Assembly (NCBI GenBank): GCA_033648345.1
Contig: GCA_033648345.1_4121.1
Length of the DNA: 64,000 nt
From: a phage
Strand: one strand, 5' to 3'
In this document: one piece after another, positions 36,040 through 64,000 of the stretch
Numbering within the stretch: position 1 is the first letter of the stretch
Layout of the letters: every line of letters starts with the position of its first letter
Program-made: the position numbers and the translations under genes
The notes under the pieces: generated by a model
The model's database searches: none
Told to the model about the DNA's origin: nothing
What the model saw: the letters and a program-made list of their open reading frames with translations, nothing else

Positions 36040-36282
36040 ATGAAAGTACTGACAGAACTAGAAATGTATCATAGATTTAATAAGTACTATCATTTACTTA
36101 AGCCTATACAGAGGATTAAATGTCCATTTGAAGAGAAACAGGTTTTAATCTATGAGCACAAGTTCTTTGTATCATTAGGTACAGATCAACAAGAGTACTA
36201 TTTGACGTTGTACTTGATTACATTAATAGATTTCATTCACTATAAAACCACACAATCTAATAAAGAGAAATATGAAAACTAA
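36040..36282 (+). CDS. FamB small paralog
   Basis: LGTDQQEYYL; start moved to MKVLTELEMY. Confidence 0.6.
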   Translation: MKVLTELEMYHRFNKYYHLLKPIQRIKCPFEEKQVLIYEHKFFVSLGTDQQEYYLTLYLITLIDFIHYKTTQSNKEKYEN

Positions 36283-36616
36283 TATACAACTCAAGGTATA
36301 TAAATCCTATGAACATATATATATCAAAAGTAGTCTATGTAGAGATGTAATGGACTACAAGGGTAAGCCATTCACAATTACGTATGATTCTTATATTAAT
36401 GATTTATATATATCATTTGTTAATTACGAAAATAAAATATACAAGCACGTTGATATTAAAGATTTAAGTACTTTATCACCAGAGGAATACTTTCAAGAAT
36501 CATTAGTATGGGATTTAGAATTTCCTATGCCATTAGTACATAAAATGATAGTACTAATGAAAGAAGCTAAACAGGAGCCTAATGGTGATTATGAAGAACA
36601 CATTATTGAGTACTGA
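36272..36616 (+). CDS. FamC paralog (short form) at the FamB/FamC border
   Basis: SPEEYFQESLVWD motif. Confidence 0.65.
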   Translation: MKTNIQLKVYKSYEHIYIKSSLCRDVMDYKGKPFTITYDSYINDLYISFVNYENKIYKHVDIKDLSTLSPEEYFQESLVWDLEFPMPLVHKMIVLMKEAKQEPNGDYEEHIIEY

Positions 36617-36619
36617 ACA

Positions 36620-36835
36620 ATGAAAAGATTATCATACAAAGATTACACCAATCTTATCAGGACTTTACAACCAGAAATTAGAAGAATTAATTCTCTTCCT
36701 ATATCTAATGAAGAATGTTCAGTACTGAAAGATGAGTTAATCTTAAAACACACAGTAGGAACAAACTATCAAGCTGATAGTGTTCGATATTTAATTTGGG
36801 GGTTGATGTGTCAAATAAAGTCCAGACAAGCTTGA
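36620..36835 (+). CDS. FamB small paralog
   Basis: VGTNYQADSV. Confidence 0.65.
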   Translation: MKRLSYKDYTNLIRTLQPEIRRINSLPISNEECSVLKDELILKHTVGTNYQADSVRYLIWGLMCQIKSRQA

Positions 36836-36860
36836 CAGTACTCTTCATTACTGCTATAGT
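36832..36860 (+). promoter_or_regulatory. sigma70-type promoter
   Basis: TTGACA-17-TATAGT. Confidence 0.5.
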
Positions 36861-36890
36861 ACACTAACGTTAATCATTAGGGTAAAAATT

Positions 36891-37136
36891 ATGTTAAATT
36901 TTTTAAATTTCCTTATCGTCTTGTGTATTGTTCTTGGGATTGCACCATTTGTATTGTATTTCATGGATTCAGATGAAATGCAGAAGATGAATTGCACAAA
37001 GACAGGACAGAGTAGAGTAGAGACGATTCTTATGCCTGTTACCGTTATTGTTAATAATATGCCCATTACAAACATGGTCCCTACCCTAACGACAACGTAC
37101 CAGTACTCTTGTACAGACGGAGAGAGGTGGAGATAA
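36891..37136 (+). CDS. Small membrane protein (N-terminal TM helix)
   Basis: MLNFLNFLIVLCIVLGIAPFVLYF hydrophobic N-terminus. Confidence 0.55.
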   Translation: MLNFLNFLIVLCIVLGIAPFVLYFMDSDEMQKMNCTKTGQSRVETILMPVTVIVNNMPITNMVPTLTTTYQYSCTDGERWR

Positions 37137-37459
37137 TGCGTAAGTTCAATTGTATTGTACGTAAGAATTCATGTTACATTGTAGTAGCTGATTTTAATAC
37201 AGGTTCTGGGTTGAAGATATTTGAGTACAGAAAATGCAATAATTCTTTTCATTGGAAATTGGGTGCAAGAAAAGCAAAAACAATTTCAGTACCGAATTTA
37301 TGTTCTATCTCTGAAGAAGAAGAGTTTCAGTACTTGTTAGTACATGATGATTCTTTAGGATTTACATTCGAAGATATGAAGGAAGTACAAAAGCAGATGA
37401 TTGCACATTGTCATCTTCCAAAGAATTTTGTTCAACGCGTATGTGAATTCTACATATAA
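37136..37459 (+). CDS. FamC paralog (short form)
   Basis: SEEEEFQYLLVHDD; start moved to MRKFNC. Confidence 0.6.
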   Translation: MRKFNCIVRKNSCYIVVADFNTGSGLKIFEYRKCNNSFHWKLGARKAKTISVPNLCSISEEEEFQYLLVHDDSLGFTFEDMKEVQKQMIAHCHLPKNFVQRVCEFYI

Positions 37460-37468
37460 GAGAAGAAT

Positions 37469-37780
37469 ATGAAATTTAATATAGCAAAAACATCGAGTAT
37501 ATGTATTTTTGGTTATGCAGAAGAGTTAGGTGATATTGACATTCTTTTGTACAAAAAGGATGGTGTTATGCATTTCAAGTACCAGGATGAAGAGGCAGAC
37601 AATTATCTTTTACCTAATTTAGTACACATGCAGGAAGAGGAATTATTCCAGTACAGCCTTGTGTACGACATTGATATTTGCACGATGCCAGTATTAATTA
37701 GTATTCAAAAAGTGATGCTCGATATGTATGATAAGCTAATACAAGGTATGTCAGGGAGGATCATTGAAATTGATATATAA
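37469..37780 (+). CDS. FamC paralog (short form)
   Basis: QEEELFQYSLVYD. Confidence 0.65.
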   Translation: MKFNIAKTSSICIFGYAEELGDIDILLYKKDGVMHFKYQDEEADNYLLPNLVHMQEEELFQYSLVYDIDICTMPVLISIQKVMLDMYDKLIQGMSGRIIEIDI

Positions 37781-37808: not shown

Positions 37809-38060
37809 ATGTACAAAAAAATAAACCGTTATTTGTATGCATCAAAGTACAGGGATTTTTGTTTACAAGGGGGAGATGACGATTTTGCTCTGAGGTTATC
37901 GGAATTTAATATGTTATTTTATCTTGGTACATCAGTACAAGAAGAAATGGTACAGAAATTTCTCAATCACCTTGGACGAAAAATTAATATACAAATTTTG
38001 ATGCTTAAGTTACAGAATGAGATAAATGAATATGAATCCAGAAATAGTTCAGGATCTTAA
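37809..38060 (+). CDS. FamB-like gene embedded in the FamC array
   Basis: YLGTSVQEEMVQKFLNHL. Confidence 0.55.
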   Translation: MYKKINRYLYASKYRDFCLQGGDDDFALRLSEFNMLFYLGTSVQEEMVQKFLNHLGRKINIQILMLKLQNEINEYESRNSSGS

Positions 38061-38769: not shown

Positions 38770-39330
38770 ATGAATGATATTGAGTTATTGGTACATAAGA
38801 TTTGCACAATATCGTTTGTGCTGAACAATTCGAATACAGTACAGAGTTCCCTTTTAAGAATTAATAAAGTTGGGAGTAGTTTATATTTGGAAGTAAAAGC
38901 TGGTTTTGCAGGACAGTACAATGATAAAATCAAAGAAGAAGTTAAGGGAAGTGAAGATGCTTACATTGAGGTTTGTGCAACAGTTGGTTCAAATCCAATT
39001 TCAGTATCACCGTTAATGCGAAATGAAAATTCAGAATTTGATTCCAGTTTTGAAGGTTATTTGTGGTACAATTATGGTGATGATTATTTTATATATCAAA
39101 ATTCCAAAACGGATTATAGTGAAGAAGGTATAAAATTCATTGATCCTTACAATGAAGCAGAAGTATTTCAGACATCCCTAATATACAATACAAATCAAAT
39201 GAAGTATCTTATGTTGTTTAGTACAATGCATTTGAATCCATTGAAAGATAATTTAAAATTTTTCATTCGTTTAGAATTAGTTGATATTGCTTATGATCTT
39301 TTAATGCAAGGATATAGTTATGAAGTATAA
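38770..39330 (+). CDS. FamC paralog (long form)
   Basis: NEAEVFQTSLIYN. Confidence 0.65.
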   Translation: MNDIELLVHKICTISFVLNNSNTVQSSLLRINKVGSSLYLEVKAGFAGQYNDKIKEEVKGSEDAYIEVCATVGSNPISVSPLMRNENSEFDSSFEGYLWYNYGDDYFIYQNSKTDYSEEGIKFIDPYNEAEVFQTSLIYNTNQMKYLMLFSTMHLNPLKDNLKFFIRLELVDIAYDLLMQGYSYEV

Positions 39331-39631
39331 AATGCTGTATACATTAACATTAATATATGTAGAATTAGAATCCGATTCAGATGCATGGAATTTGGTTAAA
39401 GAGGTCGATACCAATCAATGGTACATGGCAAATTTAGACGAACATGTTGTTACGGATTATTTTATAGATTTTAATACATTATCTGAAGAAGAATTTTTCC
39501 AAATGCAATTGGTGGTTGACATGTACGGACATGACATGGTAACATTAAGAAATATACAGAAAGTAGTTAATGAATTCCAAAGCAAGAAAGATTATGAGGT
39601 AGGAGCGTATTATGACATCGACGTACAGTGA
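39320..39631 (+). CDS. FamC paralog (short form)
   Basis: LSEEEFFQMQLVVD. Confidence 0.65.
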   Translation: MKYKMLYTLTLIYVELESDSDAWNLVKEVDTNQWYMANLDEHVVTDYFIDFNTLSEEEFFQMQLVVDMYGHDMVTLRNIQKVVNEFQSKKDYEVGAYYDIDVQ

Positions 39632-39978
39632 AAGCAATGAGTACAATAGTTATGATATATAAAATGCTTTATACAGTATCGGGGATATATGTAGAATTAG
39701 AACCCGATTATCCAGATGGATGGAATTTTATTAAACGCTCCGAAAGAAATACATGGCACATGGCACATTTGGATAATGACGTAATATTAGACAATTTTGT
39801 GGATTTTAATACATTATCAGAAGAAGAATTCTTCCAAATGCAATGTGTGCTTGACACAAAAGGATTTGATGTGCTATTATTAAAGAATATACAAAAAGCT
39901 GTTAACGAATTAATATCCAATGACGAGTTAGGCAAAGTGAGGCTGTTCCATGATCTCGAAGTACCGTACCAGCAATGA
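39628..39978 (+). CDS. FamC paralog (short form)
   Basis: LSEEEFFQMQCVLD; near-duplicate of 39320..39631. Confidence 0.65.
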   Translation: MKAMSTIVMIYKMLYTVSGIYVELEPDYPDGWNFIKRSERNTWHMAHLDNDVILDNFVDFNTLSEEEFFQMQCVLDTKGFDVLLLKNIQKAVNELISNDELGKVRLFHDLEVPYQQ

Positions 39979-40519
39979 AATTCAGTACACCTACGCTAAT
40001 GCCATTCTTATGGGACAAAAGTTAGCTTGTATTGTTGCAGCCTTATATAATGTACAGAAAGCAGCACATAATAAAAAACCATATACAAGAATCATTAACG
40101 CATTCATGGGGTTTAAACCATCTGATTTTGATTCACATATTGCGTGCACAAGTTATTTTGACAAACGATTCAATACACCTGATACCCCAAATGCCCGTAG
40201 TGTTATTAGTCTTTTACAGTTTAATCCAACACCAGTTATATCAAAGAATGATTTGGATTACACATGGTACAATTCAAATCAAGATTCATTTTATTCTAAT
40301 GATCAATCGATTGAATATAATAAAATTAAATCAGAGGAAGCATTTTTTCAGGAATCATTATTTACACATGAACGTTCTTTGTTTTATAGTGTTATGTTGA
40401 GTACAGTATACAATAGTCCATTACACAAGAATAACAAAATTAATTTCAGTTTTTGTGCTTATGCGATTGATGGTGTTTATGAGTGCTTAATGGAGGTATT
40501 GAGTTATGAAGCTGAATAA
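39950..40519 (+). CDS. FamC paralog (long form)
   Basis: SEEAFFQESLFTHE. Confidence 0.6.
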   Translation: MISKYRTSNEIQYTYANAILMGQKLACIVAALYNVQKAAHNKKPYTRIINAFMGFKPSDFDSHIACTSYFDKRFNTPDTPNARSVISLLQFNPTPVISKNDLDYTWYNSNQDSFYSNDQSIEYNKIKSEEAFFQESLFTHERSLFYSVMLSTVYNSPLHKNNKINFSFCAYAIDGVYECLMEVLSYEAE

Positions 40520-40847
40520 TACATTTGATATTAAGAAGTTAAGAGAATGGTTTTATAGTATTGAAATTGAAGCCATTCCTTATCATACATATGAACAAAG
40601 TGATTTACAAAGTATTGATATCAGAGAGTTGTACAAATATTATCAGAGTGCATTAGAGATGCATAAGTTATTTTTGAGTACAAATTTCATTCTAAATTAC
40701 AATTTTGAGGAATTTAATAATTATAATTTAGTACAGAAATATGTAGTAGCAAAGTACATGTACAATCAAGGTATCAAAGGTTGCCTCGAATTCAATACCG
40801 TTCTTATTTTAGTTGAGGTAATTTTATGCACCGCATGTCTGATTTAG
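40506..40847 (+). CDS. Hypothetical protein (degenerate FamC-like)
   Basis: Track ORF; motif not evident. Confidence 0.45.
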   Translation: MKLNNTFDIKKLREWFYSIEIEAIPYHTYEQSDLQSIDIRELYKYYQSALEMHKLFLSTNFILNYNFEEFNNYNLVQKYVVAKYMYNQGIKGCLEFNTVLILVEVILCTACLI

Positions 40848-41323
40848 AGTTCAGTTTAGATGCAGCCTTTAAATTTGTTCACAAAATAGAAACAATATAT
40901 CGTACATTATGTGCAATAACATCAGTATCAAAAGAGTTTGATGTTGGTGAAAGGTATCAGGTGTGGAATAATTCATTTTATAATAAAGAACATTCTGCGA
41001 CGGCATTTTATATTTTAGCATTTAATCCCAGCAATTGTTACCCTGAGAAGCATGAACGTTATCCAAATGACGACATGTGGTTTGAGTACAAAGAAGATGC
41101 TGATATGTCGTCAATTGTAGTTCCTGATGATTTTAATGCACAAGATTTAACAGAAGAGTGGTGGTTCCAGCAGAATTTAGTACATGATGATATTGATTTA
41201 TTTTTCTATATTGCATTTAAAATGCTTTATCACAACAATATAGTTAAAGAAAGTTTATCGTTTTCATGTCTATATATTGATGATTTGTACAATGAAATTC
41301 AAATAAACATGCCTGTATCGTAA
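40826..41323 (+). CDS. FamC paralog (long form)
   Basis: TEEWWFQQNLVHDD. Confidence 0.65.
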   Translation: MHRMSDLEFSLDAAFKFVHKIETIYRTLCAITSVSKEFDVGERYQVWNNSFYNKEHSATAFYILAFNPSNCYPEKHERYPNDDMWFEYKEDADMSSIVVPDDFNAQDLTEEWWFQQNLVHDDIDLFFYIAFKMLYHNNIVKESLSFSCLYIDDLYNEIQINMPVS

Positions 41324-41341
41324 GATATGGGCTTTTTTTGT

Positions 41342-41370
41342 TTGACACGAGTACAAATGCATGGTACAAT
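41342..41370 (+). promoter_or_regulatory. sigma70-type promoter inside the FamC array
   Basis: TTGACA-17-TACAAT. Confidence 0.5.
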
Positions 41371-41396
41371 GTGTAATCATTTTTAAGGAGATACCT

Positions 41397-41972
41397 ATGG
41401 AAAATTTTAAAATACCAGATGATTTCAATTCAGTACAAGAGATTGTACACAAGGTTCATTATATTTTTAATGAATTAATTATTGCCAATTCATCCGGTAT
41501 GCAAATTGAGTTAAAGGATATTGATAGAGAAGAAGTTTTTTTGGGTTCCCCAAATTCAATCATTCCTTTTTATGGACAAGATCGTTTATGGTTCATGAGA
41601 GATACCCCAATTGACAAATACAAAATACAAACAAAATCAGAGTTTTATTCTATTTTTGAATATCTTAATATTACATTACAAACACAAGATATAAATGCAA
41701 TGAGTGCCATGAGTGCAGAGGATTATTTTCAGTACAGTACAGTGTATAGTCCAGAAGAAATCTTTGTTGTTATGCTCGTTGCAAAATTGAGTACAGTTGA
41801 TTTTGGGACGTACCCAAATAAATCATTCAAGATTATTATTCCTGCATTCGTCGATCTTTATGATTTCATTGTGCACAAGAAAGAAAGTACAGTGTACGAT
41901 ATGTATCGTTCAAATATCAGTTTATTTGCATCAAGTGCAGTAAATGCAGTGATTACAGGGGAATTAAAATGA
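41397..41972 (+). CDS. FamC paralog (long form)
   Basis: SAEDYFQYSTVYSPEE; start moved to MENFKIPDDF after SD AAGGAG. Confidence 0.65.
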   Translation: MENFKIPDDFNSVQEIVHKVHYIFNELIIANSSGMQIELKDIDREEVFLGSPNSIIPFYGQDRLWFMRDTPIDKYKIQTKSEFYSIFEYLNITLQTQDINAMSAMSAEDYFQYSTVYSPEEIFVVMLVAKLSTVDFGTYPNKSFKIIIPAFVDLYDFIVHKKESTVYDMYRSNISLFASSAVNAVITGELK

Positions 41973-42577
41973 ACATAGACCAATTAATGAAGTACAGTAC
42001 AAATACAATTCCAGTGCTAAGTAAAGCATTAGATGCATTCAATGCTAAGTACCCTGAAGGTTCAGAGTTAAATATTCCTTTTACCACAGAAGGAATTGTT
42101 GATACGTACATTGTAAACATCAGTAGTACAGGTATTGTTTTGAAGCAAAAGTACGGCGAAAGTGAATATTATGGATTGAAGCTGGATAATATTTCAGGAG
42201 AGAAGACACCTTATGAGTTTTGGGTTCCGAATAACATTGAGTCATGGAAAACAAATATTAATAAGAGAGACGAAAGAAATTTACCTCTTGTACAAAATAA
42301 TGAAAAAAGAATTGACGTATTTTATTATTACAGTACAGCCCAGTTTCCAGAAGAGATTTATTTAAATTCAGAGGTGCATGAAGATATTGAATCATTTTTC
42401 TTTCAGTTATCATTGGTACAGGATATCATGCCTGTGCAAATGTTCAGGGATGAAATAAATTTAGCGAAAGAGATTTCGGATATGTTACCTGAATTTAGTG
42501 TTCTTTATGGTAGTAGAGCTTTACCTGAAAATGTATACAAAGAATTTATTTCCATTGTTAAAGGGTTGAATATATAA
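41969..42577 (+). CDS. FamC paralog (long form)
   Basis: ESFFFQLSLVQD. Confidence 0.65.
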   Translation: MNIDQLMKYSTNTIPVLSKALDAFNAKYPEGSELNIPFTTEGIVDTYIVNISSTGIVLKQKYGESEYYGLKLDNISGEKTPYEFWVPNNIESWKTNINKRDERNLPLVQNNEKRIDVFYYYSTAQFPEEIYLNSEVHEDIESFFFQLSLVQDIMPVQMFRDEINLAKEISDMLPEFSVLYGSRALPENVYKEFISIVKGLNI

Positions 42578-42578
42578 T

Positions 42579-42773
42579 ATGACCGCCTATGATATCAAAC
42601 AAAGGCATACGAAGTTTGATTTGTTCACATACCAATTCCACAATGATATAGTGAATTTTAACATCAATGCGTCATTGCATCCTACATCACAAGATGATTT
42701 TGACAACAGAGTGCTTAACATCGTGGTGCTTTTGTGTTATAATCATTTCAGTGAATATTTTAACACAAGATAA
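42579..42773 (+). CDS. Small hypothetical protein (64 aa)
   Basis: Track ORF. Confidence 0.45.
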   Translation: MTAYDIKQRHTKFDLFTYQFHNDIVNFNINASLHPTSQDDFDNRVLNIVVLLCYNHFSEYFNTR

Positions 42774-42786
42774 GGTTGAGGCACAC

Positions 42787-43305
42787 ATGTATCAGGCCAA
42801 GTACAATACATCATATGCATTTGCACACAACATTTTGAAGATCATCAAAGCGTTAGAGGGTGGATTGCTTAGTCATAAGTACACCAAAGTAGGTGACAAT
42901 TGGTTCAGAAATGATGATGAGTTCAGAAGTCATAAGATTGTTTACAGCAATAATTACAGTGCCAATTACCTTCAGGATGTTGCTATGTGCTTCGAATACG
43001 TGTTACAGTTCAGGGGTTCCATCAGTCCAGAGCTAAGAGAACACATGTACATTCGATACCTACCAATGCTTAAGGATGAGAAAACAATATTCAATTCAGT
43101 ACACCACAGAGTACGAGAGAGAACATTCAGGGATATTTTAGAAGATGAAGCTGCATATTTCCAGCAATCATTGATTGATGCTCCTGATGTGTTACAGATG
43201 CAGAATTTGTATAATGTATTAGATGCGAACATCGATACGGATATCTTTTTTTCCTTAAGTGATTATGAAACATTTTTGGAAGATTTAAAGGAAATAGGAT
43301 TATGA
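42787..43305 (+). CDS. FamC paralog (long form)
   Basis: DEAAYFQQSLIDAPD; start moved to MYQAKYNT. Confidence 0.6.
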   Translation: MYQAKYNTSYAFAHNILKIIKALEGGLLSHKYTKVGDNWFRNDDEFRSHKIVYSNNYSANYLQDVAMCFEYVLQFRGSISPELREHMYIRYLPMLKDEKTIFNSVHHRVRERTFRDILEDEAAYFQQSLIDAPDVLQMQNLYNVLDANIDTDIFFSLSDYETFLEDLKEIGL

Positions 43306-43646
43306 GTAGATTTTCAGTTTATATAGTAAACGTCAGTAAAGATGGTAGTTTAATTGAATTTGATGTAGTTGATGACAATGATAATTCATATTGTATTAAG
43401 GTACAGGACAATGATGTACAGTTCAGTACAAGGACAAATTTTGAAAATCCAGTCCAAGTTCCGAATTTCATAGAAGATGAAGCTGCACGATTCCAATACG
43501 AAACGGCCTTTGATAATTTAGCGATGCATATTATTATGCAACAGAGTTTAGTTCAATTGCTTCAGGTATTCAGACAAAATATATATGTACACGAAGTGTC
43601 GATTAATGGCATTCAAAGTTCCGTTTTGTTCAGTACAAATATGTAA
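43302..43646 (+). CDS. FamC paralog (short form)
   Basis: DEAARFQYETAFD. Confidence 0.6.
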   Translation: MSRFSVYIVNVSKDGSLIEFDVVDDNDNSYCIKVQDNDVQFSTRTNFENPVQVPNFIEDEAARFQYETAFDNLAMHIIMQQSLVQLLQVFRQNIYVHEVSINGIQSSVLFSTNM

Positions 43647-43656
43647 GGAAAGTACA

Positions 43657-44211
43657 ATGAGTTCAATGAGTTTATTAGATACATTAGAAAAAGACAGAAG
43701 TGCCATTAAGAGATTAAAAAATCTTGTCCAGAGCATTGCGAACAACGCTGAGAAGTTCAGTGACAATCTTAGTATAGGTGATATAACCAGTACAGGAATA
43801 AAATCCCTGAAGTCAGATTTATTAATTCATAAGGAAGATAAATTATTATTTGTATTGAGTTCAGATTTAATGGTTGCAAGTAATGGTTTCAATTCGATAT
43901 CAACACAAGATGGTAGCACAGGATTATATCTATCACAGGGTGTCCAGACGAACGAACAAAAGTGTTTTAGTTCAGGAGTACAGAATCCCTTTAAGTTCAG
44001 TACAGAACAAGCTACAGAGCTTTTAGATGCTTCAGAAGAGATGTTATTTCAGTACAAAACGGTTCATACAGATTTTGAATTACGATGCATGTACGCTGTT
44101 AAGCATTATGTTCAGGAGTTCGAGAATTTAAGTTATCTTTTAGTTCGAACGAATACAAAGAACATTGGTGCATTAGAAGATTACATTTCAAAAGTTGTTA
44201 AAGGGTGCTAA
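43657..44211 (+). CDS. FamC paralog (long form)
   Basis: SEEMLFQYKTVHTD; start moved to MSSMSLL. Confidence 0.6.
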   Translation: MSSMSLLDTLEKDRSAIKRLKNLVQSIANNAEKFSDNLSIGDITSTGIKSLKSDLLIHKEDKLLFVLSSDLMVASNGFNSISTQDGSTGLYLSQGVQTNEQKCFSSGVQNPFKFSTEQATELLDASEEMLFQYKTVHTDFELRCMYAVKHYVQEFENLSYLLVRTNTKNIGALEDYISKVVKGC

Positions 44212-44220
44212 AGGGTGCTG

Positions 44221-44382
44221 ATGAAAGAGTTATTTGAAGAACAGTTCGATACATATGTGGATAATATTCTTTATTCCAGTCGTGCTAGTCAACGAGGAAA
44301 TCGTGCTTACAACATAGATTACCTATTAACGGTGCTGAGTTCACAGTACACCTACGCTGTGCAGAGGACATATTATGGATAA
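44221..44382 (+). CDS. Small hypothetical protein (53 aa)
   Basis: Manual translation MKELFEEQFD... Confidence 0.4.
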   Translation: MKELFEEQFDTYVDNILYSSRASQRGNRAYNIDYLLTVLSSQYTYAVQRTYYG

Positions 44383-46243: not shown

Positions 46244-46244
46244 T

Positions 46245-47152: not shown

Positions 47153-47154
47153 TA

Positions 47155-52532: not shown

Positions 52533-52591
52533 CACCCTCCAAATCTTTGTGATATAATCTCTTTATATTAATTGTAAAGGGTTATATCACA

Positions 52592-56375: not shown

Positions 56376-56400
56376 AGACCCTTATGGGTCTTTTTGTGTT
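56375..56400 (+). terminator. Rho-independent terminator
   Basis: AAGACCC-TTAT-GGGTCTT followed by TTTTGTGTTT. Confidence 0.7.
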
Positions 56401-56406: not shown

Positions 56407-56435
56407 TTTACATGAGCATTCAGGTGTGTTATAAT
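56407..56435 (+). promoter_or_regulatory. sigma70-type promoter with extended -10
   Basis: TTTACA-17-TGTTATAAT. Confidence 0.55.
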
Positions 56436-56462: not shown

Positions 56463-57026
56463 ATGAGTACTGAATTAATTAAAGAAATCACATTGTTGGT
56501 AAAGCATTGTTTTAAGTTCATTGATGATAATGGTTCACGCCAGTACATTAAAGTTAATGAGAAATATAACATTAACGTCCTAAAGAATGAAACCGTTAAC
56601 AGTTATGCAAACATTGAGTTAGATGTTGAGGACAAATACACAGCATTACACATCATTTCGTCCGGCGATAGAAAACAAGATTATCGTTCTACATTTTATG
56701 ATGATAGTGTTACTGTTGGTTATAAATTTCATAAAAATAAAATTGCCTATAAGAATACATACACACATGAAGTAATTGAAGAGTACAATTATAAAATTAA
56801 AAAAGACGAGTACGATGTACTTTTATTCAATGCGAACCTCATACACAACGCTGGTACTGTTCGCAATCTTATGTTAGCATATGAAATTCCAAAGATTATA
56901 GAAAGAAATGAATTGATAATCTTTAAAACTATATTAAAATTCAGTACAGAAGAATTAGAAGATCTAGTACTGGCTCTTAAGACGTTCATCAATGAACATG
57001 TACCTGTTAAATTAGAGGACTTATAA
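56463..57026 (+). CDS. FamC-like protein (degenerate motif)
   Basis: 187 aa ORF after promoter and SD AGGAGAAG. Confidence 0.55.
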   Translation: MSTELIKEITLLVKHCFKFIDDNGSRQYIKVNEKYNINVLKNETVNSYANIELDVEDKYTALHIISSGDRKQDYRSTFYDDSVTVGYKFHKNKIAYKNTYTHEVIEEYNYKIKKDEYDVLLFNANLIHNAGTVRNLMLAYEIPKIIERNELIIFKTILKFSTEELEDLVLALKTFINEHVPVKLEDL

Positions 57027-57610
57027 TGCAAGCTGAACACATTCAAATTATGAAATTGATGCATGACATTGCAGAACTATCTGAAAAGCACAACATTACT
57101 GAACATGAGCCTATTGGAAATTATCGTCTTAAAGTTGAATGCAAATCACCATATCGTTTTGGTTCAGTAGTACTGGAGTCTTATAAAGTTTACGATTATG
57201 GAACGACGAAAAAAGGTTCATGGGATACTATGGCAATGTATATCCGAACATCAAGGCATAGTGAGCAAATCGGTTCCATTACTCCAAACATGATATTTGT
57301 CAATGCTTTACACGAAGATATTAATCGAATTGTTGAATCTAATTTTGATGACGTAGAGAATGATACATATTTGGAAATTCCACCAGAACTAGATCAATGT
57401 GAAGACATTCGCGAAGGATACATTTTTCAGAGATCAGTACTTGACAACTTCAAGGAATTTGAGTACATGATGCTTTGCTATGAAACTGCAAAAGCTATTG
57501 ACACTGGTGAATTGGTAATGTATAGTAAGTTCATTAACTGTGAATCCGATACATTAAAAGAGCTACACACGGCAATCAAAAACATCAAGGATACATATGA
57601 ACGCTTATAG
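57026..57610 (+). CDS. FamC paralog (long form)
   Basis: REGYIFQRSVLDNF. Confidence 0.65.
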   Translation: MQAEHIQIMKLMHDIAELSEKHNITEHEPIGNYRLKVECKSPYRFGSVVLESYKVYDYGTTKKGSWDTMAMYIRTSRHSEQIGSITPNMIFVNALHEDINRIVESNFDDVENDTYLEIPPELDQCEDIREGYIFQRSVLDNFKEFEYMMLCYETAKAIDTGELVMYSKFINCESDTLKELHTAIKNIKDTYERL

Positions 57611-58175
57611 TTATATGACAGCCCGACACCAACAGCTATATGATATCAGTACAAAAATGTTATCAATTGTTAGTAGTGCAAAAGAAATTGAAAAACAATA
57701 CCTCATCCGTGATGTAGCAATTTCATCTAAATGTTGGTCCAATGAATATTACGATCACGGTATTCTTACTATTTCTGGGGCTAGAAATATTTGTATTGTA
57801 AAAAATAAAAATAAAAGTAATGAAGAGTGTGAGATTAGAACCGATATACAAATTAAGGATGATGGAAGTTTTTCACACCACCCATTCCATATTAGTACTA
57901 TTGGTGTTTTATATAATATTAAAGTACTATTCGGTGATGAAGAGTATGTGTTAAAAGCTATCAATCCAGATTCAAGTACAGTTGAAGAAGAACTGTTCCA
58001 GATGAGCACTGTTATACCTGAAGAGGTTCTTAGTACTGTTATTTTTTGTAGTTTAATTTATCACACATACAAAAAGTACCAGTTCGATTTCCACATTTTA
58101 GGAACGTACATCTTCAATACTTTGAATGTTGATCGTTTAAAAGCATTAAATGCAGCAATGGATAAGGTGCTATAA
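57597..58175 (+). CDS. FamC paralog (long form)
   Basis: VEEELFQMSTVIPEE. Confidence 0.65.
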   Translation: MNAYSYMTARHQQLYDISTKMLSIVSSAKEIEKQYLIRDVAISSKCWSNEYYDHGILTISGARNICIVKNKNKSNEECEIRTDIQIKDDGSFSHHPFHISTIGVLYNIKVLFGDEEYVLKAINPDSSTVEEELFQMSTVIPEEVLSTVIFCSLIYHTYKKYQFDFHILGTYIFNTLNVDRLKALNAAMDKVL

Positions 58176-58603
58176 TGACAAGAGATGAATGCTTATACAT
58201 ATGGGATATAATTGAAACTACACTTTCAAATCCAGAAAATTATAAAACAAAAAAAAGACAACGACACAAAATATGGATAGATTTGTTCGTTGAGGGCATA
58301 CACGCAGTGACTATTTGGGATTCACCGAGGGCATCATCATCTACTCTGTTGGACAATGAATGCATTGATTGCATTAATTCCACTTTTCATCTCCACGGTA
58401 CTACATATTTCGGCACATTTCTGGATATTGAAAGTAAAGATGATATTGATTCACTTGCTTTACAATACGGAGTACTGTATGATACTAAATTAATTTACGA
58501 TTTAGTACTAGCTTCTTATGTGTATAAATTAATGATGAAATATAATCATATTTCAGTTTCAGTTTATACTAAGGATATTCTTTCATTAAGAGACAAAACA
58601 TGA
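58175..58603 (+). CDS. FamC-like protein (degenerate motif)
   Basis: SLALQYGVLYD in motif position. Confidence 0.5.
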   Translation: MTRDECLYIWDIIETTLSNPENYKTKKRQRHKIWIDLFVEGIHAVTIWDSPRASSSTLLDNECIDCINSTFHLHGTTYFGTFLDIESKDDIDSLALQYGVLYDTKLIYDLVLASYVYKLMMKYNHISVSVYTKDILSLRDKT

Positions 58604-59106
58604 GTTTATTAAATGCACGAGAATTAGTTGAGATGTATGAGATCTTATCTTCATATAAAAATTCTCCAAAAGATGTAATTCTCAACAAAAAGTTCCATGT
58701 CAATGTTGATCATATGAAAAATATAGATATGATTTCTTTAGTGGAAAGTCGTAAATCGGGTCTTGAGCGTGATATCATGCGTTTGATTTATATTACCAAA
58801 CCATCATATACTAATGATAGTTCAATTAGTAATGAGACGTTTTTGTACACTCCTTATACTGATTGTACTTTAGTTTCAATGTCTAATCAGAAACAAGATA
58901 CTATCCAATTCATCAATACCAGTACTGATAACATTGAAGAAAATGAATTCCAAAACAATACATTAAGTTCATGTAGTAGTGTTATAACCTTTATGTCATA
59001 TCTGTGGTCAATCAAATCAAATGCAATTGTATATAGTTCTAATTACACACAAGATAGTATTGTTGAATCATTTAAAGTTCTAAAGGAATACTATGAAAAT
59101 AACTAA
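58600..59106 (+). CDS. FamC paralog (long form)
   Basis: IEENEFQNNTLSS. Confidence 0.6.
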   Translation: MSLLNARELVEMYEILSSYKNSPKDVILNKKFHVNVDHMKNIDMISLVESRKSGLERDIMRLIYITKPSYTNDSSISNETFLYTPYTDCTLVSMSNQKQDTIQFINTSTDNIEENEFQNNTLSSCSSVITFMSYLWSIKSNAIVYSSNYTQDSIVESFKVLKEYYENN

Positions 59107-59674
59107 TGATTTTATTAGAAGCTTAGTGCACCCTATGCTTGGTGTTATGAAAAAACTACAGACTCTACCTGAAGACAACGATTACAAGTTTAATCGTTTT
59201 GATTCGGATGTGTTTTGTATTGAAATGGAAATTAATAACAATCGTTATTTTCATTTAAAATTCAAAGAATCGTCGAGTTCGCACTACAACTTTGACATGA
59301 ATTTTAAAATAAGCAATGATATTGAAGAAAACGCAATATCAAATCATATTAGCAGAAATGGTTTCATGCATAGAACTAATATGTTCAATAATAAAAACAG
59401 TATTATATCTAAATGGAATCATCAATTCACTAAAATTTGTGATATTGATTGCAGTACATTTGGTGAAGAACAATACTTTCAGTTAAGTACAATACATGAA
59501 CTTCCACCATATGATTGTGTAAAAACATGGTTTGATATTCATAATATAATTGATGATGCAATCGTACTTCCATTTGGGTTGTCAATATCATATACTGCAC
59601 CTAAAACGTTTGTTTTTACTGAAGATATGATTATGAAAAAGATATGGGCGATGATCCCACTTATGCTTGATTAA
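59093..59674 (+). CDS. FamC paralog (long form)
   Basis: GEEQYFQLSTIHEL. Confidence 0.65.
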   Translation: MKITNDFIRSLVHPMLGVMKKLQTLPEDNDYKFNRFDSDVFCIEMEINNNRYFHLKFKESSSSHYNFDMNFKISNDIEENAISNHISRNGFMHRTNMFNNKNSIISKWNHQFTKICDIDCSTFGEEQYFQLSTIHELPPYDCVKTWFDIHNIIDDAIVLPFGLSISYTAPKTFVFTEDMIMKKIWAMIPLMLD

Positions 59675-59685: not shown

Positions 59686-60237
59686 ATGAATCAAAGTCAT
59701 GATCTTTTTAAATTATGTGCATCCAAAGATGTGGAAGGATGGGCAGATAAAATCAATACAATTATTAACCGTTATCTTGGCTTCTGTGCACGATCACGAA
59801 GTGAAGGTTCAATGCGTTTCCAAATAACCATGACAATCGATGGTGTTACGATTTATGTCAACGAAGAACGTCTTGGTATTAATCTCTATGATAGTTGTGT
59901 CTTTGCTATTCACCAGAAAATGGGGGCAGGTTGGGGTTGTAATAATATGAACACCAATGCATTTTTCTGGGTAGGTCATAGCAACACAGTACTTGATCCT
60001 TCAAAGAAATCAAACCTTTTAGATGATAATTTGGTATATGATTTAGCTTACTCTGAAGAACAACATTTCCAGTTAAGTACATTGCATAATTTAGTCAAAT
60101 ATGAAGATTGTATCAAAGCATTAGAATTATGCCATTCACTTGAACTTAAAGAAAAATTGATACAAATTTACCCATTGTTCTTCCATGAAGAAGTACAATG
60201 CACACTAGATCATATTTTATATGGGTACGACAAATGA
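59686..60237 (+). CDS. FamC paralog (long form)
   Basis: SEEQHFQLSTLHNL. Confidence 0.65.
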   Translation: MNQSHDLFKLCASKDVEGWADKINTIINRYLGFCARSRSEGSMRFQITMTIDGVTIYVNEERLGINLYDSCVFAIHQKMGAGWGCNNMNTNAFFWVGHSNTVLDPSKKSNLLDDNLVYDLAYSEEQHFQLSTLHNLVKYEDCIKALELCHSLELKEKLIQIYPLFFHEEVQCTLDHILYGYDK

Positions 60238-60836
60238 GAAAAAGTTATCAAGAAGCTATTGACCTAATTCGAGAAGTTATTAAGGCGGCTCCAGGTGCGA
60301 TAGCATTCAAGAAGTCCCTATATAAAAAGTATGGTCCCATGTCAAGTATGTGCTGTCAAAAGAAACGTAGTAAATTTACTACGCAGTACTGGCATGATTC
60401 TATTATCCTGAGTAATGAACATCAGCGTATTTTAACAATCGAATCAGTAGATAATCAATATGGTGAAGGAATGATTTGTGTTCCTGACTATGATGAAATT
60501 AATTTCAATTGTGGAGATTATGAGACAACATTATTATTACACGAGGGTTACCCTGAAGGTGATGTAATGGCAGAGTATAATCCAAAAACCAAAATACTGA
60601 AACGTGGTATGCAGTTCAAAATCAATAACAAAGATGATGTGGAAGCAGCACTAATGCAACTTAGTACTAGTGAACCTATCACTATTGATGTAGAAGAGTT
60701 ATGGGGCATCATTTCAGTACTTAATGAGTGTTATAAAATTAAATCATTACATAAGTACTCTATCATTTTACATACTAATTGTGCAATGATAAAATGCAAG
60801 AACATACAAGAGATGGTGGTTCCAGATGAACTTTAA
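60234..60836 (+). CDS. FamC paralog (long form, divergent motif)
   Basis: VEAALMQLSTSEP; start moved to MRKSYQ. Confidence 0.55.
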   Translation: MRKSYQEAIDLIREVIKAAPGAIAFKKSLYKKYGPMSSMCCQKKRSKFTTQYWHDSIILSNEHQRILTIESVDNQYGEGMICVPDYDEINFNCGDYETTLLLHEGYPEGDVMAEYNPKTKILKRGMQFKINNKDDVEAALMQLSTSEPITIDVEELWGIISVLNECYKIKSLHKYSIILHTNCAMIKCKNIQEMVVPDEL

Positions 60837-61410
60837 AGAAATAGAAAGTAAAATTAAGTACTTCAAAGATATTAAAAAACTTTGGGAAAAGTATAAAATT
60901 GATTATCAGTTCCAAGATGATGATACTGTTCAAAGCATTGATATTAATATTCGTGTGAAGTTTAAGAATGGCAATTATGGCGAAGTTAAATTGAATGCTA
61001 TTGGTGTATTCCTTAAGGATTATGATGGTTCTTCACTCGCTCAATTCGATTTCACACCTGATCCTGATGATATGTTATTGAGTGAAGTCAATGCATATGA
61101 CCTTGAGATGTTTAATGGTAAACCTTTACTATTCCGCTTATCAGATGAATGGGATGAGGTTTACTACACATACAAAGATGGTGTGATTCGAGACGTAAAT
61201 GATGAAGTAGTAAATGATATGGAAGAACGTCTATTTCAAGAATCATGTGTGTCATCGGAGTCATATACATATCAATATCTACTTGACATGTTCGATTTGT
61301 ATAGTAAAATAGATTCAGAAATGAGTACATTGGGTATTCATTATCTTACAATCAACGACTTTGCACAACTTGAAACAGCGGTTAAAGCACTGGTCAAAGT
61401 ACTGAAATAG
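60826..61410 (+). CDS. FamC paralog (long form)
   Basis: MEERLFQESCVSSE. Confidence 0.65.
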   Translation: MNFKEIESKIKYFKDIKKLWEKYKIDYQFQDDDTVQSIDINIRVKFKNGNYGEVKLNAIGVFLKDYDGSSLAQFDFTPDPDDMLLSEVNAYDLEMFNGKPLLFRLSDEWDEVYYTYKDGVIRDVNDEVVNDMEERLFQESCVSSESYTYQYLLDMFDLYSKIDSEMSTLGIHYLTINDFAQLETAVKALVKVLK

Positions 61411-61419
61411 GAATGAATA

Positions 61420-61833
61420 ATGAAACTGTATCATGCGAGTACTGTAAAAATTGATAACTTTTATATCCCGTATGGTGGCCTTCATATGGGAGGTAAACAC
61501 AGTGCTTTAGAAGCTGCATTACGCAAACTGAGAAGCCCACTAAACGTCGTTGACGCTGATACAGTATACTTGCATACCTTAGAAGTTGATGTTGATAACG
61601 TGCTTCTATGGACGGATATGGGCAGTGATGATGAATGGCGTGGAGTGATTGAGTACTGCGAAATTAACGGCTATGATGCAGTTCAGTACCAAAACGATTA
61701 CGAACCAGATACAGTTCCTAGCTATATGATTTGGGATACGTCTAAGGTTCGCATTATTGAAGTTGATGCGATGCATATGGATGAAGCTGAAATGATCATC
61801 GAAGATTTCCTTGATGAATATGAAGGTGTATAA
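61420..61833 (+). CDS. Hypothetical protein (137 aa), no family motif
   Basis: Track ORF; locally higher GC than neighbours. Confidence 0.55.
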   Translation: MKLYHASTVKIDNFYIPYGGLHMGGKHSALEAALRKLRSPLNVVDADTVYLHTLEVDVDNVLLWTDMGSDDEWRGVIEYCEINGYDAVQYQNDYEPDTVPSYMIWDTSKVRIIEVDAMHMDEAEMIIEDFLDEYEGV

Positions 61834-62351
61834 TGATTGAACCTATGACAGTACTAGCACGTACTAAATTATTATTGAAGATTGGTGAGATATTCACTGA
61901 TATTTTGTACAGTGGGATTGATATACATGAATTAGGCATTAAGCAACCGTGGGAAATAACCAAGTTCTCTGCGTTCTATCGTTTATCATATAAAGGGGAA
62001 ACGGTTCTGGACTGGAACCCCAAAGCCAAATTCATGGAATATGCGGCGTTATATGGAAGCAATGGTGGTATAACAAATAATTTTAAAGAAATTAAAGTCC
62101 TAATTGGGTCAAAGGAATTTAATGATCTACTATATCCAGAATTTAAGTTAACAGAAGAATTAATATTTCAGTACTCTTTGATTTTAAAAGATCTTAATGA
62201 TTTAGAGTACTACAAAGAGTTAGTAGATATTTTTATTAATACTCGACTTTCAAAAGATATTGTGATATTCTGGTATGTTGAGTATGTTACAGAGGAATTG
62301 CTTGAAGAATTTCTTCTAAATATGACAGCAATCAAGGAGAAGTTATGTTAG
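61833..62351 (+). CDS. FamC paralog (long form)
   Basis: TEELIFQYSLILKD. Confidence 0.65.
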   Translation: MIEPMTVLARTKLLLKIGEIFTDILYSGIDIHELGIKQPWEITKFSAFYRLSYKGETVLDWNPKAKFMEYAALYGSNGGITNNFKEIKVLIGSKEFNDLLYPEFKLTEELIFQYSLILKDLNDLEYYKELVDIFINTRLSKDIVIFWYVEYVTEELLEEFLLNMTAIKEKLC

Positions 62352-62818
62352 ACATTTTAGGAAACATCGATACAGCAAATTATTTTATTCAAGATGCACT
62401 GTTCAATACAGTACAGAAAGGGTTGGATGTACGATGTAATATCCATCAGGGAGATGGGTATTTTGTTGATATCACAGAAACACGCAAGAACGTGTTCAAT
62501 TTAAACATTACCACATTAGCACGTCAGAACATTGCACGCATTCTGGTTAATAAAGATGAAATAGTTCTTCGTTATAATTCCAAATTCTTATTCACATACA
62601 AGAAGAAGACTGACATGTTCAGTACTAATTTGTTTGATGAACCCTTCAATCTGGAAGACTTAGAAGCAACTTTCTTTACACAGAACACTATGCTGAAATT
62701 CAATGATGTTGAATTTTCATCAGAAGTAATGTCTGAAACACTACAAATGGTTAAGGTAGTATTCTATGCTTTTCAACAGTTTAACGAAGAACGAAACAAG
62801 GTTAACAACAACAGATGA
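62345..62818 (+). CDS. FamC paralog (divergent motif)
   Basis: LEATFFTQNTMLKF. Confidence 0.55.
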   Translation: MLDILGNIDTANYFIQDALFNTVQKGLDVRCNIHQGDGYFVDITETRKNVFNLNITTLARQNIARILVNKDEIVLRYNSKFLFTYKKKTDMFSTNLFDEPFNLEDLEATFFTQNTMLKFNDVEFSSEVMSETLQMVKVVFYAFQQFNEERNKVNNNR

Positions 62819-63179
62819 ACTAATCGCGGCGATGGGAGCCAATGAGAAATACTTCAATGGGATTCATTTTTTTAAAACAGATCTTAGTGAAAGTAAAGTA
62901 CTATATGTGTATGGTTCCCAGTACTGCATTGTCACAAAGCACCCAGATTCGATTTCACTAAAATTTAACACTTATTCAAAAAACTTCTTGACGATTAATA
63001 AAAGCAATGTTACTATGTCTGGTATAGGGAATCAGGTTGTTGAGATTCCTTTGGACTCAATTGATTCTATTGAGTTCTTTCAATACGAGTGCTTAGGTGT
63101 TGATTTTGGTACTGTCAGTACTGAATCTATGCGAACATTAATTAATTTACTTAAAGGTAAAGTTCATGCTTTTAACTAA
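62766..63179 (+). CDS. FamC paralog
   Basis: DSIEFFQYECLGVD; start uncertain (52-nt overlap with upstream gene). Confidence 0.5.
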   Translation: MLFNSLTKNETRLTTTDELIAAMGANEKYFNGIHFFKTDLSESKVLYVYGSQYCIVTKHPDSISLKFNTYSKNFLTINKSNVTMSGIGNQVVEIPLDSIDSIEFFQYECLGVDFGTVSTESMRTLINLLKGKVHAFN

Positions 63180-63666
63180 TTCGATGAAGAATTCATTTAA
63201 AATTATCAAAGAAATACTAAATGGGTCTAAAACTTCTAGTGGGTCTTCCTTTACTAGTGACCAGATCCAACACAGTACAAAGGATTGTACTGTAATCTTT
63301 GGGTTACATAGTCTGCGTTTGACAATAGTAAATAATATTGATAACACAGCAATTGTAATCACCCCATGTCATATTCAGAATGAAACAGGTGCATACTTAC
63401 ACCACATGGGGACTGTATTCTACATCTTCAATACTGAAGAAAACATTGTTAAAGAATACAACACACTCAATGTTGATGCAGGTGAGTTATTCCAATTGAG
63501 TACTGTCAATGATTGTAACTTCAGTGACAATGCAGAAGTACTTCCATTGTTTCTAAGTCTTCTCAATAACATGGAAAAACTAACCATTGCATACAACAAA
63601 AGTGACGTACCGCAAGCAGTATTGAATATCACCGAAGCAATGGAGAAATACAAAGCTGTGACCTAA
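63166..63666 (+). CDS. FamC paralog
   Basis: DAGELFQLSTVNDCN. Confidence 0.65.
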   Translation: MLLTNSMKNSFKIIKEILNGSKTSSGSSFTSDQIQHSTKDCTVIFGLHSLRLTIVNNIDNTAIVITPCHIQNETGAYLHHMGTVFYIFNTEENIVKEYNTLNVDAGELFQLSTVNDCNFSDNAEVLPLFLSLLNNMEKLTIAYNKSDVPQAVLNITEAMEKYKAVT

Positions 63667-63708
63667 TATATGTGCACATGGAGTGCCTTTGAAGATCAAG
63701 GATAGATC

Positions 63709-64000
63709 ATGGAGATTAAAACTGTTGAGAATGGAAAGATAGATGACATTTTAGAGTTGGACGCATTCAAAGTTCATGATATAATGTTCAATGTAAAGGA
63801 CATAATTCAGTGCTTGTTTTTATGCAGTAAAACTATGCACGACTTCTTTCACAATCCAAATACTAATGTTTTCATACTAACAATCAGTACTAGCAATTCG
63901 TTTATCATGGGTATGCCTATGAGTACAAATGACGAGTACATTGATTGTGTTATTCGTAACAATGATAATATTACCCCACAATCTGAAGTACGTAAGAAAA
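63709..64000 (+). CDS. Hypothetical protein, 3' end outside window
   Basis: Open frame from ATG 63709 to window edge by manual translation. Confidence 0.45.
   Translation, partial: MEIKTVENGKIDDILELDAFKVHDIMFNVKDIIQCLFLCSKTMHDFFHNPNTNVFILTISTSNSFIMGMPMSTNDEYIDCVIRNNDNITPQSEVRKK

Follow-up and report, generated by a model that had tools for sequence, protein, structure and literature searches.

Large multigene families located near genome termini, such as MGF110, MGF360 and MGF505 of African swine fever virus (ASFV) and the ankyrin-PRANC and BTB-kelch families of poxviruses, are thought to act on host range or host defence. In bacteriophages, early host-takeover blocks are represented by the host-takeover module of SPO1, the pre-early genes of T5 and the early small proteins of T4 and T7. 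The present analysis concerns a 64,000-nt stretch of phage DNA (GenBank assembly GCA_033648345.1, contig GCA_033648345.1_4121.1), hereafter referred to as the window, which contains about 40 tandem copies of one uncharacterized small-protein gene, designated FamC, of a giant Escherichia coli phage. For phages of this size, tandem duplication has been proposed by Hua et al. as a route to jumbo genome growth, with an array of more than 30 genes noted in phage 121Q (PMC5646251). In phage CBB, RpoD-like promoters cluster in a region of short hypothetical genes that its authors suspect to be early host-takeover genes (PMC5259590), and in PA5oct the genes of the terminal repeat are early according to RNA-seq (PMC7318152).

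The FamC array resembles the ASFV and poxvirus families in that dozens of diverged tandem paralogs lie beside the genome termini, with a copy number that varies by strain and with each copy maintained. It differs from them in its bacterial host, in its unrelated fold and in having a single short invariant motif instead of a repeat domain, and a host-range or anti-defence role, unlike that of the viral families, can only be proposed for it. Of the characteristics of terminal tandem multigene families, three were observed, namely, a head-to-tail arrangement with adjacent nearest relatives, location near the terminus, and variation in copy number and content. With the arrays reported in jumbo phages, FamC shares the lineage-specific tandem amplification of small genes, and the remark on 121Q concerns a phage of the same genus; however, the “>30 very similar genes” of 121Q correspond better to another array of the window, with 30 members at 30318-36282, than to FamC, in which paralogs are at most 56% identical. 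Small, tightly packed genes at or in long terminal repeats, σ70-type promoters and non-virion products are common to FamC, the SPO1, T5, T4 and T7 blocks and the CBB and PA5oct regions mentioned above, whereas the SPO1, T5, T4 and T7 blocks consist mostly of unrelated singletons and FamC of 40 copies of what is modelled as one fold. In the literature search, no paper describing the FamC family, its motif or its fold was found. FamC sequences have been public since 2013-2014, and paralog arrays in jumbo phages were already known; what appears new is the unity of the family, its motif and its modelled fold, and the array is real, large, deeply conserved and structurally unassigned.

Extent, membership and motif of the array

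The FamC array occupies positions 36272-63666 of the window on the + strand and comprises 40 firm and 6 marginal paralogs, among which a few unrelated small genes are interleaved. The 40 firm members encode proteins of 103-212 amino acids (aa) within 27 kb and cover 69% of the bases, and the array amounts to about 19 kb of coding sequence, or about 5% of the genome. An all-against-all BLAST comparison of the open reading frames (ORFs) of the window was enough to connect some of the + strand genes downstream of 36 kb into groups. An iterated hidden Markov model (HMM) search of all window ORFs converged on 36 + strand ORFs between 36272 and 63666, no further ORF of the window being found at E < 1e-3, and in the leave-one-out test 35 of the 36 ORFs retained E < 1e-3, the remaining one having a value of 0.0023. 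Profile-profile comparison with hhalign, built on small ortholog alignments, added the genes starting at 41969, 59093, 59686 and 61833 (P from 3e-5 to 5e-4, with the motif columns matched to each other) and thus brought the number of firm members to 40; among 16 control ORFs taken from the terminal repeat, P exceeded 0.1 in 15. Six further ORFs were marginal in this comparison (P 0.005-0.06, in register), while the interleaved ORFs starting at 38026, 40506, 50696, 54768, 56463, 61420 and 62345, considered as hidden members, gave no hhalign signal. The first-pass annotation of this DNA, which had described a giant tandem array of paralogs sharing a motif, was therefore correct as regards the array itself; its figure of about 46 members holds as an upper bound, its statement that almost every gene belongs to the family is too strong given the 69% coverage, and its extension of the array to position 64000 has to be shortened to 63666, since the partial ORF at the window end is a non-member.

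The firm members share the motif E-E-x-Φ-F-Q-x-S-[LT]-[VI] in a single alignment register. The Phe and Gln residues fall into one column pair and are invariant in all 40 window members, and the Glu-Glu pair and Ser are conserved in about 80%, at a mean column identity of 13%; a lack of positional homology, which had been named as a finding that would speak against the family, was thus not observed. Information content remained near background (about 1.3 bits) except for a sharp peak of about 10 columns formed by the motif. Nine of the 40 members had another residue in place of the motif Ser and 13 in place of the second Glu, and at position 4, counted from Gln, Thr occurred in 15 and Cys in three. 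The distance from the motif Phe to the C-terminus was 40-81 aa, so the variation in length is mostly N-terminal. The pattern FQ.[ST][LTVC][VILMF] was found 32 times in the + frames and twice in the minus frames of 36272-64000 and was absent from every frame of 1-36271. A DNA-level repeat or regulatory element was rejected as the cause of the motif: the sole DNA repeats were the motif-coding stretches themselves, in which the Phe, Gln, Glu and Ser codons vary synonymously, indicating that selection acts on the protein. The proteins are acidic (median isoelectric point (pI) 4.8, net charge -8), unlike those of the neighbouring arrays, and membrane or secreted proteins were rejected, with one weak hydrophobic segment detected among the 40.

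The proposed division into short and long subfamilies was confirmed, with lengths of 103-137 aa and 146-212 aa, respectively, whereas the supposed ending in WYF was found in four members only and the I/L-Q pair proved to be a feature of the short subfamily. The motif strings quoted for individual genes were either present or off by one to two residues (STLY in 47621 and EAEIFQESLIFDKKY in 45717). In the first part of the array, the short members are located at 36272-36616 (114 aa, PEEYFQESLV at 36479-36508, HMM E-value 1.7e-17), 37109-37459 (116 aa, EEEEFQYLLV at 37313-37342, 3.1e-14), 37469-37780 (103 aa, EEELFQYSLV at 37634-37663, 1.5e-12), 39320-39631 (103 aa, EEEFFQMQLV at 39485-39514, 1.9e-13), which has 56% identity to its neighbour at 39628-39978 (116 aa, EEEFFQMQCV at 39820-39849, 2e-15), 44951-45364 (137 aa, DAALFQEALV at 45191-45220, 2.3e-20), 45361-45720 (119 aa, EAELFQESLV at 45556-45585, 3.3e-23) and 45717-46061 (114 aa, EAEIFQESLI at 45912-45941, 3.4e-21). 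Further short members follow at 48061-48375 (104 aa, ETFLFQESLI at 48241-48270, 1.4e-13), 51304-51663 (119 aa, EDELFQESLV at 51490-51519, 5.8e-17), 51653-51991 (112 aa, TGELFQESLV at 51830-51859, 1.3e-16), 53543-53905 (120 aa, EEELFQESTV at 53738-53767, 1.4e-15) and 53889-54302 (137 aa, PDELFQYSLV at 54078-54107, 1e-13).

The longer members begin with 38770-39330 (186 aa, EAEVFQTSLI at 39154-39183, HMM E-value 4.9e-20), 39950-40519 (189 aa, EEAFFQESLF at 40334-40363, 8.2e-21), 40826-41323 (165 aa, EEWWFQQNLV at 41153-41182, 2e-23), 41361-41972 (203 aa, with the true start probably after 41361; AEDYFQYSTV at 41715-41744, 2.6e-18), 41969-42577 (202 aa, ESFFFQLSLV at 42389-42418, in register with hhalign P 2.2e-4), 42667-43305 (212 aa, EAAYFQQSLI at 43147-43176, 9.4e-20) and 43585-44211 (208 aa, EEMLFQYKTV at 44035-44064, 8.8e-19). 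They continue with 46245-46715 (156 aa, EEFYFQQNTI at 46572-46601, 1.4e-24), 46712-47152 (146 aa, EEYYFQQSLI at 47009-47038, 1.9e-27), 47155-47643 (162 aa, EEYYFQNSTV at 47479-47508, 6.7e-32), 47621-48064 (147 aa, EEYYFQNSTL at 47918-47947, 4.2e-29), 48375-48818 (147 aa, EYAYFQYSTI at 48651-48680, 5.1e-21), 48815-49270 (151 aa, EEGYFQGSTV at 49094-49123, 5.4e-24), 50109-50705 (198 aa, EENIFQNSLM at 50493-50522, 5.9e-20), 51942-52532 (196 aa, EENYFQQSLL at 52368-52397, 7.4e-24), 52592-53071 (159 aa, EEEFFQYSTL at 52904-52933, 4.3e-29), 53068-53550 (160 aa, EEMYFQESCI at 53395-53424, 2.1e-29) and 54290-54784 (164 aa, EESYFQNSLI at 54602-54631, 1.2e-26). The distal part contains 55307-55864 (185 aa, ESVMFQHMLI at 55634-55663, 3.2e-22), 55791-56375 (194 aa, DEVQFQLSTI at 56205-56234, 1.2e-20), 57597-58175 (192 aa, EEELFQMSTV at 57984-58013, 9.3e-24), the weakest HMM member at 58600-59106 (168 aa, EENEFQNNTL at 58936-58965, 9.4e-14, leave-one-out E-value 0.0023), 59093-59674 (193 aa, EEQYFQLSTI at 59465-59494, hhalign P 3.1e-5), 59686-60237 (183 aa, EEQHFQLSTL at 60055-60084, hhalign P 4.8e-4), 60826-61410 (194 aa, EERLFQESCV at 61222-61251, 1e-16, leave-one-out 6.8e-4), 61833-62351 (172 aa, EELIFQYSLI at 62154-62183, hhalign P 4.7e-5) and the last member, 63166-63666 (166 aa, AGELFQLSTV at 63478-63507, 2.7e-15).

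Distribution and evolution of the family

Judged by megablast identity, the window belongs to an Asteriusvirus, i.e., a RaK2-like jumbo coliphage (myoviruses with genomes of 350-385 kb): positions 44000-56000 matched Escherichia phages Turkey3, vB_Ec-M-J, WPEC3, fEgEco12 and CMSTMSU over the full length with 96-98% identity and phages of the 121Q/PBECO4 type with 85-90% identity. Under the matching regions, every gene is annotated in public records as a hypothetical protein. Direct terminal repeats of 20,993 bp in fEgEco12 are experimentally supported (PMC13070987); in this phage the arrays begin at 21,091, after the repeat end at 20,993, and FamC spans about 27.3-56.3 kb. A repeat of this type, of about 21 kb, maps to roughly 8.3-30.2 kb of the window, in which the sign of the GC skew flips at about 8 kb, so the window covers the transition from the unique genome, at its right end, into the repeat. 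The repeat is followed by the 30-member array of genes of about 70 aa at 30318-36282 and then by FamC, which thus lies just inside the left terminal repeat.

No match to FamC was found in Pfam, NCBIfam, PADLOC (which holds defence, not anti-defence, proteins) or a profile search of all PDB sequences, and no solved PDB fold resembling it, including enzyme or sponge folds, was found, in agreement with the first reading of the sequence, in which the family was not recognized. FamC members matched PHROGs 9317, 12674, 15629, 13866, 19795, 30978, 34636, 38467 and 35972, all of “unknown function”, with E-values down to 1e-132, and several members cross-matched two to four of them; in PHROGs, therefore, the family is split into many small groups with no function given, and its unity and motif are not recorded. 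When 1.84 billion representative proteins were searched exhaustively with the HMM, only 133 clusters matched. These were 55-215 aa long, except for one tandem-repeat artefact (P0063, 773 aa with 13 matched stretches), which was rejected as a family member; 113 bore the motif under a strict pattern, FQ stood at the expected distance from the C-terminus in 128 of 132, and no domain fusion was found among the 133. The best database match to the family profile, P0134, is a 242-aa protein on a 358-kb contig that carries the label E. coli; it exceeds every window member in length and could represent a fusion of two genes or a read-through call. Every match that was traced belonged to a RaK2-like phage, the named ones being Asteriusvirus and Klebsiella phages RaK2, K64-1 and Muenster. 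Fold-level matches were also found in phages of Serratia, Cronobacter, Yersinia and Erwinia, and the hosts of RaK2-like phages include Escherichia, Klebsiella and Salmonella.

In Klebsiella phage Muenster (Alcyoneusvirus), at least 30 members are present at the same position, the repeat occupying 1-20,030 and the first member starting at 20,938, and a 41-kb metagenomic contig (28% GC), only about 30% identical, carries at least 29 members in 20 kb. For 16 of the 40 members, the adjacent one was also the nearest paralog (expected number 2.0±1.6), and the maximum identity between paralogs was 56%, indicating that the array arose by tandem duplication and that all the duplications are old; according to the sequence comparison, they predate the split of the Escherichia and Klebsiella phages. 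For 38 members, syntenic reciprocal-best one-to-one orthologs with 40-96% identity were found in 121Q. The median ratio of nonsynonymous to synonymous substitutions (dN/dS, pooled Nei-Gojobori count) of these orthologs was 0.22, compared with 0.28 for neighbouring non-members, and remained flat along the protein (0.15-0.33), with the lowest values around the motif; positive selection was accordingly rejected for this pooled count. The rapid divergence originally postulated for the paralogs is not supported, in view of these values and of the same motif-bearing array in Muenster and the metagenomic relative. Synonymous divergence from 121Q differed widely among adjacent genes, with values as low as about 0.1 and as high as more than 2, and this mosaic suggests recombination or allele exchange among co-circulating phages. 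The numbers of members counted in the window, fEgEco12 and 121Q were 41, 45 and 43, respectively. Three members of fEgEco12 lacked a counterpart of at least 60% identity in the window, and 10-12 members fell below 60% each way between the window and 121Q, of which about 4-5 are lineage-specific and the rest divergent orthologs. Thus, the family is ancient and is maintained gene by gene with slow turnover.

Predicted fold, expression and possible function

The AlphaFold2 model of the 162-aa member at 47155 (predicted local distance difference test (pLDDT) 86.9, predicted template modelling score (pTM) 0.82) contains, in order, an N-terminal helix, seven short strands, helices 99-103, 109-115 and 121-135, a strand and a C-terminal helix, with helix 109-115 corresponding to EEYYFQN and with blocks of pLDDT 95-98. 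The 119-aa short member at 45361 (pLDDT 83.4, pTM 0.80) was modelled as five strands, helix 66-75 with EAELFQESLV (block pLDDT 94), a long helix and a closing strand, which is the core of the 47155 model in the same order of elements but lacking the helices at the two ends. The motif belongs to the most confident blocks of each model. According to these models, a FamC protein would be one compact α/β domain in which a β-meander is followed by a short helix and, after a loop, by a long helix and a closing strand; long members would add an N-terminal and a C-terminal helix. The block [ST]-E-E-x-Φ-F-Q-x-S-[LT]-[VI]-Φ-[DN] would form the short helix and the turn into the long helix and hence be an integral part of the fold: Ser/Thr would act as the N-cap, the two acidic residues would occupy the first turn, Phe and the Leu/Thr-Val/Ile-aromatic run would make core contacts, and Asp/Asn would cap the next helix. 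With the motif modelled as a helix inside a folded domain, neither a disordered linear motif nor a protease site is favoured; in the first-pass annotation it had been called a short linear motif, with processing suggested as one possibility. The conservation of the invariant Gln together with Glu-Glu and Ser suggests that the motif is also a shared functional patch. As a string, Q-x-S-L-V-Φ of FamC resembles the bacterial β-clamp-binding motif (QL[SD]LF or QLxLxL), which is found in a flexible terminus or loop and carries Leu at position 4 and an aromatic residue or Leu at position 5 or 6; this identity was rejected, because 18 of 40 members have Thr or Cys instead of the key Leu and the models place the segment in the interior of the chain, within the folded part.

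Overlaps were found at 37 of the 64 gene junctions (including 11 of the ATGA and 8 of the TAATG/TGATG type), and only five gaps exceeded 40 nt, four of which carry a near-consensus promoter, two of these promoters being preceded by terminator-like hairpins; the polycistronic expression supposed earlier from the ATGA/TAATG overlaps fits these data. With a threshold of at least 11 of 12 consensus positions, 12 σ70 matches were found on the + strand and none on the minus strand, with about 2 expected. σ70-like promoters of the TG-extended type were located at 36832-36860 (11/12, in the 55-nt gap before 36891), at 41342-41370 (11/12), directly after a terminator-like hairpin with a T run at 41311-41332 that follows gene 40826-41323, at 42624-42652 (10/12, in the 89-nt gap 42577-42667), and at 56407-56435 (11/12, in the 87-nt gap before 56463), where gene 55791-56375 is followed by a terminator-like hairpin at 56374-56393; a perfect promoter (12/12, TG; TTGACA-18-TATAAT) was found at 52529-52558 in the 59-nt gap before 52592. 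All of them are on the + strand. The array is thus probably organized as several translationally coupled operons read by the unmodified host RNA polymerase, in which case its genes would be early; the CBB and PA5oct observations lend this some indirect support. Of the 62 proteins in the virion proteome of phage phAPEC6, none falls between gp347 and gp549, the interval that holds the family, with gp442c as a FamC ortholog; virion proteins were rejected on this basis, and the family is therefore non-structural. Taken together, the + strand promoters, the overlapping junctions and the absence from the virion suggest early, non-structural expression.

FamC is therefore tentatively regarded, at somewhat less than even probability, as a scaffold family of early cytoplasmic host-protein binders acting in host takeover or anti-defence. 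The family is old and tandemly expanded, its products are small, acidic and soluble and are not virion proteins, and it is confined to RaK2-like jumbo phages. One scaffold and probably one patch would be kept while the remaining surface differs, so that each paralog would engage another host target. A host-directed effector role is plausible on these grounds. Several points weigh against this interpretation. The counts of σ70-like sequences at a loose threshold were not above those in shuffled sequences, and early timing is deduced from the promoter consensus and by analogy with relatives. The AlphaFold2 models were built from shallow alignments of 36 and 26 sequences, and only the periodicity of the sequences and the modelled secondary structure served to judge whether the motif residues are buried or exposed. 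An invariant Gln and Glu-Glu and Ser conserved at about 80%, at so low a mean column identity, exceed the usual structural need, and the term scaffold may thus give too little weight to a ligand, partner or catalytic site common to the members. The low and flat dN/dS lacks the arms-race signature often shown by anti-defence binders, and the negative PADLOC result says little because of the content of that database. Finally, the role in every phage and for every member is something that we infer.

Among the alternatives, an adaptor function, likened to the F-box, SOCS-box and PRANC proteins of eukaryotes and poxviruses, survives best, though it is considered unlikely: the motif helix would serve as a “box” that docks all members on one partner, either a host machine, e.g., a protease, or a phage enzyme, while the variable part would recruit targets. 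It would explain the concentration of conservation in about 10 columns with background elsewhere, the Phe-Gln pair retained in all window members and in 128 of 132 representatives alongside the largely conserved Glu-Glu and Ser, and the fixed distance of the motif from the C-terminus behind an N-terminal part of variable length. A candidate partner is the gene at 61420-61833, embedded in the array, which is conserved inside it across genera and annotated in Muenster as a putative ADP-ribosyltransferase (ART). However, the motif was modelled within the folded core and not as a separate module, the partner is putative only, its ART annotation was not reproduced, and the representatives include no domain fusions. 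A detailed version of this proposal, in which a helix of about 12 residues docks every paralog on one machine and some forty β-sheet surfaces deliver different host proteins, making the locus a programmable host-takeover array with an unseen fold, is quite unlikely.

A shared small-ligand or catalytic site, in which a pocket of Glu-Glu, Gln and Ser would bind or modify one small molecule or metal common to all paralogs, with differences among them in specificity or regulation, is improbable; near-invariant polar residues in spite of extreme divergence and the acidity of the proteins are compatible with it, whereas the lack of similarity to enzyme or sponge folds, the replacement of Ser in nine and of the second Glu in 13 of the 40 members, and the unusual situation of forty paralogs of one enzyme or sponge are not. 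The co-assembly of paralogs into a large early intracellular structure, with the motif as the subunit interface, would account for one conserved patch on otherwise divergent subunits and for the co-expression implied by gene overlaps; such an assembly is hypothetical, copy number and content vary among close relatives, which is awkward for a fixed complex, and this explanation is distinctly improbable. Near-neutral filler, i.e., tandem duplicates of little function that occupy an enlarged capsid, would agree with the duplication proposal of Hua et al. (PMC5646251) and with the variable copy number, yet it appears highly improbable in view of the dN/dS of 0.22 with intact ORFs, the one-to-one synteny within the genus and the retention of motif and array across genera at about 30% identity. 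Processing of E-E-x-Y-F-Q by a phage or host protease like those of tobacco etch virus (TEV; NIa, ExxYxQ↓G/S) or picornaviruses (3C, LFQ↓G) is hardly tenable, since the string is shared with ENLYFQ and LFQ sites but the strict consensus ExxYxQ[GS] is matched by 5 of 132 database representatives and in the window by EEGYFQGS of 48815 alone, 39 of 40 members misfitting it, the residue after Gln (P1') varies (E, Y, N, Q, L, M) with the conserved Ser one position late at P2', the motif is helical and, in both models, located where confidence is highest, no peptidase of the C3/C4 type was matched among the scanned ORFs (part of the 64-kb window of a genome of about 360 kb), and no TEV/3C-like protease is known in E. 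coli.

Marginal members, neighbouring genes and significance of the array

The marginal candidates, all on the + strand, are the ORFs at 43302-43646 (114 aa, hhalign P 0.0063), which contains MQQSLV, although the aligned stretch lies just upstream of it; 49257-49793 (178 aa, EEQCFQLSC, P 0.035; core HMM); 57026-57610 (194 aa, EGYIFQRSVL, P 0.0051); 58175-58603 (142 aa, LQYGVL in register, P 0.014); 60198-60836 (212 aa, P 0.057 over 41 columns); and 62766-63179 (137 aa, IEFFQYECL, P 0.023). Outside the array, the + strand ORF 4579-5238 (219 aa) carries LTPEEEFMYSTVIDNPEL about 46 aa from its C-terminus and aligns in register with the FamC motif, with Met in place of Gln (hhalign P 0.0024); it may be a divergent FamC relative, separated from the array by the terminal repeat.

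The array at 30318-36282, which begins right after the terminal repeat, consists of 30 tandem paralogs of 65-96 aa that are basic (median pI 8.7) and share the block ~fLGTNyQE.yV; four of its copies lie inside the FamC array (36620-36835, 37809-38060, 49771-49989 and 49967-50161). A third array, at 3405-7973 (+), just before the start of the terminal repeat, includes 15 paralogs of about 60-80 aa and a four-member group at 3811-4568. Kinship of FamC with either array was rejected (hhalign P 0.58 and 0.6, respectively), and the two arrays showed no clear relationship to each other (P 0.05). The 137-aa product of gene 61420-61833 (+), which is conserved in 121Q and fEgEco12, has 57% identity to CPT_Muenster_123, annotated as “putative ADP-ribosyl transferase” (HHpred 4GV2_A, 99.8%); this label was not reproduced by Pfam, NCBIfam or PDB profile search. 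On the minus strand, 478-1644 and 1698-2882 encode two paralogs, each about 390 aa long and containing RCC1 repeats; their family bears the annotation “DNA condensation protein”, and the phAPEC6 virion includes representatives of it (gp549 and gp551). Within the terminal repeat, ORF 25144-25785 (+, 213 aa) had a sub-threshold match to protein kinases (Pfam PF00069, E-value 0.0048), and a Ser/Thr kinase “PknA” is annotated in the matching region of Turkey3; six minus-strand ORFs at 10209-21901 cluster by BLAST, which suggests dispersed DNA repeats rather than real genes.

RaK2-like jumbo phages are under development for therapy, yet a function is known for fewer than 20% of their genes. The FamC array has been under purifying selection since before the genera of Escherichia and Klebsiella phages diverged, and it is tractable owing to one invariant FQ pair, 40 natural variants and a block structure. 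If the array were dispensable, this would support the growth of jumbo genomes by near-neutral tandem duplication. If its products are host-takeover or anti-defence binders, the array would represent an extensive collection of novel inhibitors directed at bacterial proteins and an example, in viruses of bacteria, of the multigene-family strategy of ASFV and poxviruses.

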